Part shown: in pieces, positions 3,135 through 26,125 of the stretch
How positions within the stretch are numbered: the stretch's first letter is position 1
Layout of the letters: each line of letters begins with the position of its first letter
Virus record (IMG/VR): IMGVR_UViG_3300035208_007487
Reading direction: 5' to 3' (one strand)
From: a virus
Lineage: Duplodnaviria > Caudoviricetes
Length of the DNA: 64,000 bases
Notes under the pieces: generated by a model
What the model saw: the letters and a program-made list of their open reading frames with translations, nothing else
Told to the model about the DNA's origin: nothing
Database searches by the model: none
Program-made: the position numbers and the translations under genes

Positions 3135-4180
3135 TGCCTACACCTAAATACCTATTCACCACATATACATCAGCACAGGATGCACTAAACAGTATAGATA
3201 CATGGCTAGTGAATACTATGGGGTACACTAGAAACCTAGCACCAACTGCTGATACTGTTACATACACTGGGTACAAGGCGCACTATCAGTTTACATTTAT
3301 TACAGGTGAAGTAATTTACCTCAACTTCCATACTGATACAGTAAACTCTAAATTGTATTTAACTACATCAAGAGCATATTCATCTTCATTAGAGTGGAAT
3401 GTGCAATCCGGAACTCCTAAAGTACAATCAGGGGCTGTTATTTATGGAACCATAGTCATACCAACTACAACAACAAATAATAGTTTGTATTTATTTGGGG
3501 ACGCATCTGGTAATTGTCAAGTATTTGTTCAACGTGGAAATAATATAAGTGCTTCTGATTTGATGCAATGGGGTGTGCTTAATAAGTCAGGATTTGGGGT
3601 ATGGACCGGTGGGTGCTATTTTGATTCCTGGTTACTCCCATCTACAATATTGAGTTCAAGTAATTCAGGGCCGTGTATTATTAATGCAACTAATCAGCAC
3701 AGTCCTTATGGAGCAGTGGATGTTTCGGTTGATGGGCTAACAGATTGGGGTGCTATTTATATACTAGGTGGCCGTGGTCAACAGGAATATGAACCAGATA
3801 ATCCATTAAGAACTACGTCTACTTATTACAGTAGTATTGTAGTTGGGCTCAATTTGACTACAAATACTAATCTACTAGTCTCCGATATGACTGATGGAAG
3901 TACTTATTATTGTCCCAATCAATTATGTAATGTGGTTGAAGACTTTGCATCTGGATATGTTAATAATATGACAGGGAGAATTGTCTTTGGACAAAATACA
4001 ACGATATACGTTAGACATGAAGCAACTCAACGAATATCCCCAATTGGTTGTATACCATTCGGTTATCATTGCCCAATAGCAGGTGCTTATCAGTACGTAG
4101 CCCCTGGAACCCAGCTAGTGCAAGATGACCGCACATTTATCATGATTGGAAATATCGCTGCGGAGATGGTAAGTGTCTAA
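3134..4180 (+). CDS. Virion structural/tail protein
   Basis: 348 aa, coupled to the previous gene by a TAATG overlap; beta-rich. Confidence 0.6.
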   Translation: MPTPKYLFTTYTSAQDALNSIDTWLVNTMGYTRNLAPTADTVTYTGYKAHYQFTFITGEVIYLNFHTDTVNSKLYLTTSRAYSSSLEWNVQSGTPKVQSGAVIYGTIVIPTTTTNNSLYLFGDASGNCQVFVQRGNNISASDLMQWGVLNKSGFGVWTGGCYFDSWLLPSTILSSSNSGPCIINATNQHSPYGAVDVSVDGLTDWGAIYILGGRGQQEYEPDNPLRTTSTYYSSIVVGLNLTTNTNLLVSDMTDGSTYYCPNQLCNVVEDFASGYVNNMTGRIVFGQNTTIYVRHEATQRISPIGCIPFGYHCPIAGAYQYVAPGTQLVQDDRTFIMIGNIAAEMVSV

Positions 4181-5285
4181 TCCCTTAGCGGTAATTGCTC
4201 CTAAGTTTGGCCCACTTAGTTTACAGCTATCTAAGCGTTACTTAGCAGCTTCAGTAACTAATGCCGCCTTTGTTGGATATCTACCGGATGGCCAAAAAGT
4301 AAGTGTATCCGGTGGCGGAGGTGTAATGCCTCTTGGACCGTCTTTTGGAATGAGAGTTTCAGATGGTTCGATACTTCAATTAACACCTCAAAAAGACTTT
4401 GGATCTGGATTACCAAACAATAAATCCATAACTCTTACATATGGGCAACCATCTGAACCAACTCACTACAGATCTGATCCACTTTCTTTAGTAAAATTCA
4501 ATACATTAGGATCTCTGAACTTTACACAAGTCAAACATTCAGATGGTCCATTATCTCTAAGAAATCAAAATCCAAAATATACATACAAAGTATCCGTTCC
4601 GCCTAAAGTACATGATTTTGACATAACAGCTAAAGCATTATTTTCTGATAAATATTCCTCTACTGAAGCATCTTATAGAATATTTGGTGGCAGAAATAGT
4701 GCTCCAACTTGTACCTGGATATTACCGGCAACTAGTGAATGTAGAATAGATGAAACATTAACTCCAACAGTATTATTAATTGATCCAGATGGCGATGATG
4801 TGGCTTGGACAATATATGCCAATGGAGTTTCGATTGCATCTAGTACGGATACTGTATCTGGAAATGAAGTATCTGGAACATATATAGCTTCATCACTAGG
4901 AACTATTGCATTTTCAATTACAATGACCGATACTTTAGGATCTTCTGCAATTGTAGCTGGTCCAACTGTTACTGTTATTAATGATCAATATCCAATTGGA
5001 ATATTTATTACTAAATCTACTCAAGTACACACAGGAAGCAAAGTTCAAATAACATTTAGAATTAGTGATCCGGATGAAGACACTATTAATTATTCGCTTA
5101 GTAATAACGATTCTGTGATTGTTACTGGAACTGCGACTGAAGAAGTAACAATTCAATCAAAATGGACTGCTTCTAGTGGATCTAATCAATTTAAATTAAT
5201 AGTTGGCGATAAATATGGTAATGCGCCTGAAATAGTAGGGCCATTAATAAAAGTTGTTCCTAGAAGAACAATCTCAAATAATTAA
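4173..5285 (+). CDS. Ig-like/PKD-domain virion protein
   Basis: Two Ig-like repeats with DPDGD/DPDED motifs (NSAPT..DPDGDDVAW; DQYP..DPDEDTINY). Confidence 0.65.
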   Translation: MSNPLAVIAPKFGPLSLQLSKRYLAASVTNAAFVGYLPDGQKVSVSGGGGVMPLGPSFGMRVSDGSILQLTPQKDFGSGLPNNKSITLTYGQPSEPTHYRSDPLSLVKFNTLGSLNFTQVKHSDGPLSLRNQNPKYTYKVSVPPKVHDFDITAKALFSDKYSSTEASYRIFGGRNSAPTCTWILPATSECRIDETLTPTVLLIDPDGDDVAWTIYANGVSIASSTDTVSGNEVSGTYIASSLGTIAFSITMTDTLGSSAIVAGPTVTVINDQYPIGIFITKSTQVHTGSKVQITFRISDPDEDTINYSLSNNDSVIVTGTATEEVTIQSKWTASSGSNQFKLIVGDKYGNAPEIVGPLIKVVPRRTISNN

Positions 5286-23640: not shown

Positions 23641-23909
23641 TAAGTTCCTGCTTTTACACTAGGATCGTTATTAATTACACATTTTGCATCGTGACTAGTA
23701 TACCAAACACCTGGATAAGAAGGATATTCCCAATGATTTTTTATTGGATCTTGCACTGGAGATTGTGGAAATTTAGTCCAATCTATTATTGTTGGAGTTT
23801 TATCTACAATAGTTTTTAATTGATTATATAAATCGCTGGCTTCTTCAAAAGTTAGAATATATTCATCATCTCCCAGCTTTATTTTAATTTCTTGGCTTAT
23901 TTTAATCAT
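23640..23909 (-). CDS. Hypothetical protein
   Basis: 89-aa ORF coupled to both neighbours. Confidence 0.55.
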   Translation of the reverse strand: MIKISQEIKIKLGDDEYILTFEEASDLYNQLKTIVDKTPTIIDWTKFPQSPVQDPIKNHWEYPSYPGVWYTSHDAKCVINNDPSVKAGT

Positions 23910-24220
23910 TATACTTTTCCTGTAGTTGAACCTAATCCACCTTCTCTAACATCTCCATTATCCAAACTATCGCCATCAATTAATAAAAATTTAGCAAAAA
24001 TACCTTGAGCAAATGATTCACCTCTAAGTATTTTTAATGTTTTGGTTCCTTGATTATGCAATCTAATAAATATTTCACCTTCATTTTTAGGATTATTGTA
24101 ATAATCACAATTATGCAAGCATATATGATTTCCAAAAAAATTGTGATTATTATCAACATTTAAATAATATATTTTCATGTCAGATATTTTTGTTAATGAC
24201 TTTACTTTTACAAACTGCAT
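23909..24220 (-). CDS. dut: Split-intein C-half (37 aa) fused to dUTPase C-terminal extein
   Basis: VKVKS..IYYLNVDNNHNFF..CLHN|CDYYNN..EGEI..FAQGIF..REGGLGST. Confidence 0.9.
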   Translation of the reverse strand: MQFVKVKSLTKISDMKIYYLNVDNNHNFFGNHICLHNCDYYNNPKNEGEIFIRLHNQGTKTLKILRGESFAQGIFAKFLLIDGDSLDNGDVREGGLGSTTGKV

Positions 24221-25157
24221 TTAATATCTCCAGTGTTTTACCATCTCGGTATTTTTTATTCTTAAACCACTCAGTTTCCCAAATAATTATAACACAATAC
24301 CCCTTACTTATTATATAAATTTCTCTATTCTTATCATATTCCCAAATTTCACTAGCTGTTTTTCCTACTTTACTGTTATAATATTTCTCATCATATACTT
24401 TTGGATTGCAATGCCAATAATCTCCGTAACATTCTATTGCTACATTTCCAATACAAAAATCTAAGCTATACCTTTTATTATCATCATTCAAATATTTTTC
24501 ACATTCAACATCTATGAAATTATTAATTAAAAAACTATTAACATTCTTAGCAAATTTAGACTTTCGTTTACCAACTCCTTTATTAGCACATTCAATCGAA
24601 CAATATATTTTATTTCTATGTTTAGGTGATTTAAAAATCTTCCCGCATGTTCTACATTTAATGAATTCATTATTATAATTATAATGGCATTCTGTTGAGC
24701 AAAATTGAACATTTTTTCTGTATCTATCGTATGCAAAAGATTTCCCACAATATATACAATTAGTAGTTATTTTTGTTGATACTTTTTTATTATTAAGTGG
24801 TCCATTTTTCTTAACAAATTCTATGTAGCATTTAGTTGAGCAAAATCTTGATTTATTTTTTACATATTTAAAGGGTTGATATTCATGCCCACAATTAATG
24901 CACTTTGAAAATTCACAAAATTTATATTTTAAATGAACTTTCCCACATTTTTTACAAATTAATGGATTTTTAATTTTTATTGGTTTTATAATAACTTTTT
25001 TATTTTTCAGCAATTCATCATGCTTAATAGTATTCCGATATACTACTGAACATTTTAAGCTACAGCAAATGTTGGGTCTATCTTTTCTAGCTTTAAATTC
25101 ATTTCCGCAAATTAAACACTTAACCAATGGACGCGCATTAATGTATTTCTTACTCAT
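24180..25157 (-). CDS. Free-standing Vsr/DUF559-like homing endonuclease with zinc-finger repeats
   Basis: Several CxxCG..FCS..C repeats; C-terminal IECYGDYWH..IWETEW. Confidence 0.8.
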   Translation of the reverse strand: MSKKYINARPLVKCLICGNEFKARKDRPNICCSLKCSVVYRNTIKHDELLKNKKVIIKPIKIKNPLICKKCGKVHLKYKFCEFSKCINCGHEYQPFKYVKNKSRFCSTKCYIEFVKKNGPLNNKKVSTKITTNCIYCGKSFAYDRYRKNVQFCSTECHYNYNNEFIKCRTCGKIFKSPKHRNKIYCSIECANKGVGKRKSKFAKNVNSFLINNFIDVECEKYLNDDNKRYSLDFCIGNVAIECYGDYWHCNPKVYDEKYYNSKVGKTASEIWEYDKNREIYIISKGYCVIIIWETEWFKNKKYRDGKTLEILNAVCKSKVINKNI

Positions 25158-25177
25158 ATTATAATATTTATACTAAT

Positions 25178-25738
25178 TCATATTATTGTCAATATTTCAT
25201 CATCTAAGGTTAAATCTTTAACAATCACCCAGCCTCTTTTAGTATAGACTTTTTTAGTAGCAGGAATTTTCACTGAATCTCCATTAGTTAATTCTAAATT
25301 AACCATATTGATGCCATCCACTTCAATAATTTCATTTAATAAATCTTCTTCTATTATATTTTTTTCTTCATTATATGAATAGACATTTTTTATATTTTTT
25401 TTAAGAACATCTAGCACTGAATATTCCCCACTTGGAGTAGATATTAATGTTTCGCCTGGAACACAATCTATTATTCCAACTGTGTTTGCTAATCTAACTG
25501 AATACTTAAATCCAAGCCCACTTCTAGGGTAAATAAATAAAGCTTCATCTGGTAACATAAAAGCTTTATATTTTGTGGTTAATATATCGCTCAATTCCCC
25601 TGGTTCAATAATTATATCAAATCCAGTATTGTTGAATATGTCATAACCAGCCGCATGCTTTGTAGCTCGGATTGGCTTTTTTAGAGTTTCATTTGAATAT
25701 TTTGAAACTACTTCAAAATCTCTATTTTTATCTGACAT
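25178..25738 (-). CDS. dut: dUTPase N-terminal extein fused to split-intein N-half (95 aa, from Cys at 25465)
   Basis: AAGYD, PRSG, NTVGIID|CVPGETLI..VYTKRGW..DL..DDEI. Confidence 0.9.
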   Translation of the reverse strand: MSDKNRDFEVVSKYSNETLKKPIRATKHAAGYDIFNNTGFDIIIEPGELSDILTTKYKAFMLPDEALFIYPRSGLGFKYSVRLANTVGIIDCVPGETLISTPSGEYSVLDVLKKNIKNVYSYNEEKNIIEEDLLNEIIEVDGINMVNLELTNGDSVKIPATKKVYTKRGWVIVKDLTLDDEILTII

Positions 25739-25825
25739 GAAAAATCCTTTGTAAATTAAAACTATCTTAAGCTAATTATAACAGTTAGTGAATTTATATA
25801 TCATAAATACTATTAAATCGAACAA

Positions 25826-26125
25826 TTGAGGGATAATATGTTTAAATGGATTTCTGAATTTTTTAGTGCAGCTAATGGAAACGCTTCTAGTAAAAGATTA
25901 GTTAAAATAGCTTCTACTATATCTGCAATAGGTATTGGATGGTATAGTATTATATCAGGGCATCCTCTTGATACTAATGTATTAATACTAGTAACTTCAA
26001 TAGCTGGATTATCAACTGGATCATATATATTAACTAACAAAAATGAAACAGCTAAATCAGCAATAATTAATACCATTAATACCGTAGTTGCGTCTGAAAA
26101 AGTTCCTGATAAGGATGATGAATAA
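25826..26125 (+). CDS. Putative holin
   Basis: Two TM segments, SSKR motif, coupled to the endolysin; CATAAATA upstream. Confidence 0.65.
   Translation: MRDNMFKWISEFFSAANGNASSKRLVKIASTISAIGIGWYSIISGHPLDTNVLILVTSIAGLSTGSYILTNKNETAKSAIINTINTVVASEKVPDKDDE

Follow-up and report, generated by a model that had tools for sequence, protein, structure and literature searches.

Fractured genes, in which a host protein is encoded in two parts that each carry one half of a split intein and are separated by a gene for an endonuclease, have been described for gp41, IMPDH, DnaE, NrdA, NrdJ, DNA ligase, terminase and one unknown protein (Dassa 2009, PMC2677866). These genes run on one strand in the order N-terminal part with intein N-half, short spacer, free-standing endonuclease of the Vsr-like or GIY-YIG kind, and intein C-half with C-terminal part. 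The same order is found for dUTPase (dut) in the stretch analysed here, a window of 64,000 nucleotides (nt) from an uncultured T4-like phage (IMG/VR record IMGVR_UViG_3300035208_007487), where the enzyme is divided into two half-genes, each with half an intein, and a nuclease gene lies between them. We consider it probable that this is a fractured dut gene with a split class-1-like intein and a free-standing Vsr-like homing endonuclease, inserted directly after the Asp of dUTPase motif III. An earlier note, made from the letters of this DNA alone, had likened the locus to the fractured genes with split inteins and intervening endonucleases, and the comparison with the 2009 catalogue upholds that likeness.

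The agreement extends to several further features. Like the catalogued hosts, dUTPase is an enzyme of phage nucleotide metabolism; the dut intein halves, at 95 and 37 amino acids (aa), fall within the catalogued ranges of 88–105 and 33–54; and the relatives of the locus include endonuclease-free variants such as that known for gp41-7. The locus differs in its spacer, which is 20 nt long where the catalogued spacers measure 27–51 nt, and in the overlap of its nuclease gene with the downstream half-gene. It also differs in the intein itself: in the catalogued inteins none of the five catalytic residues is lost, the block-B Thr and His included, which is not true of the dut intein.

The closest solved relative of the dut intein is that of NrdJ-1 (PDB 8ubs / 9omb), which likewise comes from a fractured gene, and a profile built from the alignment of dut N-genes (A1) matches 8ubs with an E value of 6.5e-8. 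Blocks F and G of the two are very similar (NHNFF...HN), and both have YTK..G after block B, but host and insertion site are different. Block B reads TPDH in NrdJ-1 and PATK in the dut intein, and the +1 residues are Ser and Cys, respectively. The earlier note had put the dut pair forward as a candidate orthogonal trans-splicing tool; its kinship with NrdJ-1 and its missing block-B His bear on how orthogonal and how fast such a tool would be.

The earlier note had also called dUTPase an unusual host. This holds for the literature: dUTPase is not on the 2009 list, and in the searchable literature no paper naming it as an intein host was found, the texts that mention inteins together with dUTPase or deoxyuridine being unrelated. 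It does not hold for metagenomes, in which the arrangement is widespread among phages.

The divided dUTPase gene and its split intein

All three open reading frames (ORFs) are on the minus strand, arranged head to tail. The first (N-gene, 25178–25738) encodes 186 aa, of which residues 1–91 (25466..25738) are dUTPase and residues 92–186 (25181..25465) are the intein N-half, beginning with Cys1 (CVPGETLIS); the stop codon is at 25178–25180. The dUTPase portion contains motif I (AGYD), motif II (PRSG) and the first half of motif III (GIID), and ends NTVGIID. A spacer of 20 nt separates the stop codon from the ATG of the nuclease gene (24180–25157, 325 aa), whose 3' end overlaps the C-gene (23909–24220, 103 aa) by 41 nt at 24180–24220. 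The first 37 residues encoded by the C-gene (24110..24220) are the intein C-half, with block F (NHNFF) and block G (CLHN), and end NHNFFGNHICLHN; Pfam Intein_splicing matches residues 2–37 (E 1e-4) at profile positions 119–155 of 155. The C-extein that follows (23909..24109, stop included) starts with the +1 Cys, supplies the rest of motif III (CDYYNN) and motifs IV and V, and continues to GGLGSTTGKV. The earlier note had described both half-inteins with these lengths and junction residues, and the gene overlap as well; the ORF coordinates and translations, together with the Pfam match on the C-half, bear this description out.

The two host portions together make up a single dUTPase. The PHROG 135 dUTPase profile matches the N-part at positions 147–226 (E 7e-17) and the C-part at the adjacent positions 228–289 (E 2.6e-6), the A1 profile matches dUTPase structures with E values down to 1e-16, and the five motifs of trimeric dUTPases (PF00692) occur in order across the halves (AGYD, PRSG, GIID/CDYY, AQGIF and GGLGSTTG). 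A protein search also identified an uninterrupted dUTPase of 157 aa (P0016). Both halves are colinear with this allele, as parts of one enzyme gene broken into two same-strand ORFs. P0016 is 97–98% identical to the N-extein and differs from the C-extein at one position only, the predicted spliced protein reading GIID-C-DYYNN and P0016 GIID-S-DYYNN. The splice product with a restored motif III that had been predicted earlier is matched, apart from this residue, by an existing intein-free allele, which reads GIIDSDYYNN across the junction. Motif III of trimeric dUTPases contains a catalytic Asp, as in GLID-S-DYQG of Escherichia coli Dut, and the Asp just before the break is this residue. Because the break directly follows it, the intein sits in the dUTPase active site; inteins usually occupy the active sites of their hosts.

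The terminal residues of a class 1 intein are all present, namely Cys1 (C92), the His-Asn pair at the end of the C-half (H36-N37) and the +1 Cys (C38). The protein collection contains at least 26 N-genes and 27 C-genes built in this way (33–97% identity). In the alignment of 26 N-gene sequences C92, K162, T166 and R168-G169-W170 are invariant, and in that of 27 C-gene sequences so are N25-H26-N27-F28-F29 and L35-H36-N37. Neither Cys1, nor the His-Asn end of the C-half, nor the +1 Cys varies in these 26/27 relatives or in any IMG/VR dut locus. At +1, Cys is found in every interrupted allele, and Ser, Ala or Gln in alleles without an intein; this restriction can be understood only if selection acts on the splicing chemistry. 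The two halves are of opposite charge, the N-half being acidic (10 basic and 17 acidic residues) and the C-half basic (4 basic and 2 acidic).

Several observations weigh against a splicing intein in a fractured dut gene with its own homing endonuclease. Block B in the window is P159-A-T-K162 (25253–25264) and departs from the TxxH of canonical class 1 inteins, whose Thr and His activate the scissile bond at the N-terminal end; in block F, Tyr takes the place of an Asp found in related inteins. For many inteins the block-B His is considered essential, and the literature names the Tko CDC21-1 orthologs, a very small set, as the only ones without it (PMC6333167). Taken alone, each dUTPase half scores below the Pfam cut-off of 22 bits (15.9 and 13.9 bits). 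Finally, the ATG of the nuclease gene is preceded by no visible Shine-Dalgarno sequence, and the octamer TATAAATA lies only 7 nt upstream of it.

The lack of the block-B His is shared by the whole group. In a HMMER alignment to the Ssp DnaB intein (1mi8), the block-B Thr is opposite P159 and the block-B His opposite K162. Related split inteins of other hosts keep the His on the same profile, mostly as TPDH, whereas it is missing from every dut split intein. The dut inteins fall into a 'CVP' subfamily, which includes the window, has PxxK in block B and His or Tyr in place of the block-F Asp, and is paired with Vsr-like nucleases, and a 'CFS' subfamily, which has TxxT or TxxS and is paired with another nuclease type or with none. 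In Tko CDC21-1, where the inteins are contiguous and archaeal, a Lys outside the conserved blocks compensates for the missing His; the dut inteins are split and phage-borne, and carry Lys at the His position itself, or Thr/Ser there in the sister subfamily. The two groups are alike in being natural clades without the block-B His. Splicing may take place despite the change of the block-B His to Lys; Lys162 may replace the His in its role, and the invariant Asp at −1 may have a part in the splicing step. A broader proposal, which we make tentatively and rate at slightly less than an even chance, is that the dut split inteins form a large, naturally occurring clade which carries out trans-splicing in the absence of the block-B His, and that the −1 Asp may activate or restrain the N-terminal thioester.

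The absence of this His from all dut split inteins, whether Lys or, as in the second subfamily, Thr/Ser stands in its place, would also suit halves that no longer splice and serve only as a tight non-covalent docking pair for the dUTPase pieces. There is a precedent in NrdA of phage Aeh1, a fragmented enzyme whose pieces assemble through interaction domains and are not spliced, and PMC3045599 shows that ligation is not required for a phage enzyme to work after a mobile element has broken it. Docking is nevertheless rather unlikely here. It needs neither Cys1, nor the His-Asn pair, nor the +1 Cys, yet all are invariant, and the +1 Cys is confined to interrupted alleles. Since the break directly follows the motif III Asp, ~130 extra residues would occupy the active site if the halves remained unspliced. 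Moreover, splicing inteins that lack the block-B His are known (PMC6333167).

The intervening nuclease and movement of the cassette

The nuclease encoded by the middle ORF consists of an N-terminal region (aa 14–190, 24588..25118, minus strand) with four to five tandem zinc-ribbon units of the form CxxC...(F/Y)CSxxC, and a C-terminal domain (aa 198–325, 24183..24566, minus strand) with the motif IECYGDYWHCNP. The zinc-ribbon cysteines are invariant or nearly so in relatives, and the array presumably binds DNA. Comparison of the nuclease sequence with the PDB gave only a weak match, to the FCS zinc finger 2l8e, and the matches to sequence profiles were weak as well (MTES_1575, E 2.6e-4, and PHROG families labelled 'HNH endonuclease'). 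An AlphaFold2 model (62 sequences) has a mean predicted local distance difference test score of 86, and shows repeated beta-hairpin plus helix units in the N-terminal region. Model residues 198–325 superpose in VIA-align on Vsr (1cw0) with Z 11.4 and a root mean square deviation of 2.9 Å over 116 residues, and on the catalytic domain of I-Bth0305I (3r3p) with Z 10.9 and 2.4 Å over 96/97 residues; the Foldseek probabilities for the two structures are 1.00 and 0.99.

In the 62 sequences D233, G245, H249 and E294 are invariant, and E242, W248 and D275 are present in at least 90%. The conserved residues correspond to Vsr D51, position 62, W68-H69 and D97, that is, to the composite EDxHD motif described for Vsr-like nucleases (PMC2677866 and PMC3239194). 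This predicted fold and these motifs sustain the earlier description of the gene between the halves as a Zn-finger/Vsr-like endonuclease. The spacing of 7 between E242 and H249 is, we take it, that between position 62 and H69 of Vsr. The model thus supports a Vsr-type nuclease fold with an EDxHD catalytic motif for the product of the middle ORF. I-Bth0305I, of the EDxHD family, agrees with it in catalytic fold, in the conserved Asp/Glu/His/Asp positions, and in a two-part build with a DNA-binding N-terminus (presumed for the dut nuclease) and a nuclease C-terminus (PMC3239194). I-Bth0305I, however, is intron-encoded and has NUMOD helices, whereas the dut nuclease is free-standing within a split intein and has the zinc-ribbon units. 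No second copy of the intein or of the nuclease was found in the window.

An intein-free allele is present in a metagenome contig of 1029 nt (L133), which encodes P0016 exactly. The contig matches the window at 26070–25462 with 97.4% identity and at 24111–23723 with 98.7%, and what is absent from it is exactly 1356 nt, beginning with the Cys1 codon (25465) and ending with the last codon of the intein (24110). This segment is the complete cassette of intein N-half, nuclease gene and intein C-half (24110..25465, minus strand), with a guanine-plus-cytosine content of 25.3%. The matching flanks and the exact absence of the cassette indicate that occupied and empty alleles coexist in phages that are ~98% identical. 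The exteins of the window and L133 differ at 8 of 471 positions. Of these eight differences, five are no more than 20 nt away from the junction, a clustering with a binomial P of 7e-6 when a 20-nt window is considered and of 2e-4 with a 40-nt one. Four of the five are silent and fall in the final 19 nt of the N-extein (25469..25484, minus strand); compared with the intein-free allele they turn AAT into AAC, ACG into ACA and, twice, ATT into ATA. The fifth changes the +1 codon from AGT to TGT (24107–24109). The cluster is presumed to represent the nuclease target site or a co-conversion tract. The silent changes lie in the same relative position as the cut of I-Bth0305I, which is made immediately upstream of its own insertion site (PMC3239194).

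Relatives in IMG/VR were identified with the C-gene profile. They are encoded by 171 stretches, the best 80 of which were inspected, and 59 of these 80 loci are a split dut with an intein half. The split dut arrangement is therefore not rare, but frequent in IMG/VR. A single N-gene used as the query on viral contigs returned only one distant locus, with an unrelated host. Among 50,697 GenBank phage records no match covers the intein part, all 50 matches stopping at residue 91–100. A contiguous (unsplit) dUTPase intein was not found among longer proteins, which gave unrelated fusions only, although this is weak evidence of absence.

The content of the space between the halves varies among these loci. 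An intact homolog of the window nuclease is present in L005–L008, L011, L012, L014, L015, L022–L024, L026, L049 and L050, a frameshifted copy of the gene in L009, L010 and L036, and a remnant of 71 aa in L033 and L035. Another group (L013, L016–L021, L028, L029, L040, L043–L048, L054–L063 and L066) has an unrelated ORF of 294–311 aa, which, from weak TnsA-like, DUF1064 or RE_endonuc matches, appears to be another PD-(D/E)xK-type nuclease; L041 retains pieces of a broken ORF of this type. The nuclease gene is absent from L030–L032 and L037–L039, where only a 65-nt spacer is found. These states form the series expected of a homing cycle, with invasion, decay and re-invasion by another nuclease.

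Two further features of these loci were observed. In L043–L048 and L054–L063 the split site itself holds the TnsA/DUF1064-like nuclease, and homologs of the Vsr-like nuclease domain occur free-standing ~3.5 kb upstream of dut, in the first 500 nt of each stretch. In L007 and L008 an additional ORF of 87 aa (2649–2912) lies between the dUTPase N-gene and the nuclease gene and enlarges the cassette, so that the halves are 1352 nt apart.

Transfer of the cassette can be seen in two loci from different metagenomes, L023 and L026. Their cassettes differ by 7 mismatches in 1275 nt (99.5% identity), whereas the N-exteins are 78% identical just upstream and the C-exteins ~74%, with the last mismatch 13 nt before the Cys1 codon and the first 6 nt after the end of the intein. 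A near-identical cassette in such diverged exteins indicates that the intein halves and the nuclease gene moved together, and recently. Between the window and P0002 the intein N-half is 84% identical and the N-extein 69%. The nearest relatives of the window N-extein are intein-free alleles (98%, 86% and 72%), and the nearest other interrupted allele is 70% identical. In a quick extein tree (~100 columns, poorly resolved outside the well-supported branches), interrupted and intact alleles interleave, with 15 state changes compared to 25 in shuffles, and the well-supported branches force at least three state changes. With an empty allele and transfer between diverged alleles, the cassette is demonstrably mobile.

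These data bear on whether the middle ORF could instead encode a domesticated zinc-finger DNA-binding or repair protein, not a homing endonuclease, within a cassette that is now vertically inherited. The family is very large, with 4878 cluster representatives at E <= 0.001 in an exhaustive search, and the N-terminal zinc-ribbon array is unlike the NUMOD modules of characterised members. Vertical inheritance, however, agrees poorly with near-identical cassettes within diverged exteins and with presence/absence polymorphism at ~98% flank identity. The ORF is decayed or replaced in relatives, and where present it conserves the Vsr/EDxHD catalytic residues. Domestication is accordingly very improbable.

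Selection, expression and the proposed pathway

The ratio of non-synonymous to synonymous substitution (dN/dS) was estimated by the Nei-Gojobori method on eleven informative locus pairs. It is 0.06–0.30 for the intein N-half and 0.03–0.16 for the C-half, with zero non-synonymous change in two pairs, and 0.04–0.32 for the exteins, so that the intein halves are as constrained as the exteins. At loci without a nuclease gene (L031, L037 and L041) dN/dS for the intein halves is 0.06 and 0.00–0.03. Low values in these loci suggest that the intein halves are kept as proteins after the selfish driver has gone, as expected if the phage needs them for rebuilding dUTPase.

The opposite situation, a dut gene killed by a selfish insertion in a phage that uses the dUTPase of its host or another copy, is extremely unlikely. 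The bin to which the window belongs, as contig C18, measures 2.36 Mb, a size which implies that a phage contig was binned together with a bacterium, and a dUTPase-like gene with 36% identity is present on contig C154 of the same bin. In addition, dUTPase is not universal among phages. A dead gene would not, however, be expected to retain two intact half-ORFs with ribosome-binding sites, or exteins with such low dN/dS over many interrupted alleles. The C-extein is that of the intact allele apart from the +1 change of Ser to Cys, and the arrangement persists across dozens of diverged phages. A group I intron and an assembly chimera were both rejected, as intein blocks are present in the reading frames and dozens of independent contigs show this layout.

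The two half-genes each have a Shine-Dalgarno sequence 7 nt before the ATG, AAGGA at 25745–25749 for the N-gene and GGAG at 24228–24231, within the nuclease gene, for the C-gene. The octamer before the nuclease ATG, TATAAATA (25165..25172, minus strand, in the 20-nt spacer), is the T4-type late-promoter consensus. It occurs 13 times in the window (e.g. at 1597, 15760, 20859 and 25165), compared to 32 copies expected from dinucleotide shuffles, which indicates that it is avoided elsewhere in the window; this scarcity is consistent with a role as a late-promoter signal in this phage. The same sequence is found in the spacer of two relatives (L005 and L006), and the second dut intein subfamily has a conserved inverted repeat in this spacer. 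The copy before the nuclease gene may act as a promoter, and it is plausible that the nuclease is expressed late and in limited amount.

For a fractured dut gene that splices, the following pathway is proposed. The two half-proteins would be translated separately, each from its own ribosome-binding site, and the acidic N-half and basic C-half would bring them together. Trans-splicing would then yield a dUTPase of 157 aa that differs from the uninterrupted allele only by the Ser-to-Cys change in GIID-x-DYY. The nuclease would probably be made from its own late promoter. It is predicted to cut, during co-infection, intein-free dut alleles adjoining the insertion site, and repair of the cut allele would copy the whole 1356-nt cassette.

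Downstream of the dut locus the same strand encodes a clamp loader (PHROG 168, E 4.5e-53), besides two ORFs that are small or unassigned, while an endolysin-like gene lies upstream on the opposite strand. A second fractured gene occurs elsewhere in the bin (L214, G000:C172:45144-48449, with minus-strand ORFs at 2512–2970, 1468–2511 and 846–1487). Its N-gene ends KMDGEN before the intein Cys, a ligase-like nucleotidyltransferase motif. The nuclease of 347 aa is Vsr-like and 31% identical to that of the window in the catalytic domain, and the C-gene begins with an intein C-half ending VHN before CS; block B of this intein is canonical (TGNH). Another contig of the bin (G000:C3:49854-51665; L215, L219 and L222) has a frame of 1115 aa with two Intein_splicing matches, apparently contiguous inteins. 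In L082 and L083 an ORF of 265 aa (3986–4780) has an intein C-half at its start and an intein N-half at its end, and looks like the middle piece of a gene that has been fractured twice, into three pieces with two split inteins.

Significance of the dut split inteins

The locus would be a further case of a fractured gene, one that adds dUTPase, for which no report was found, to the host enzymes. It goes beyond the catalogue in three respects: its cassette is mobile, an empty allele occurs naturally, and the whole clade has lost the block-B His. A clean test of homing could draw on material already available, namely the allele with the cassette, its natural empty counterpart and the candidate polymorphisms of the target site.

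The His that is absent across the clade belongs to the textbook core of the first splicing step, and every other splice residue is under strong purifying selection. If the clade splices, it constitutes a natural experiment on alternative catalysis of this step, and would be the first naturally split and widely distributed case of a His-independent N-S acyl shift. Split inteins from fractured genes (gp41-1, NrdJ-1 and IMPDH-1) are among the fastest tools for protein ligation, and the dut clade would in that case be a source of split inteins with a different dependence on extein and pH.

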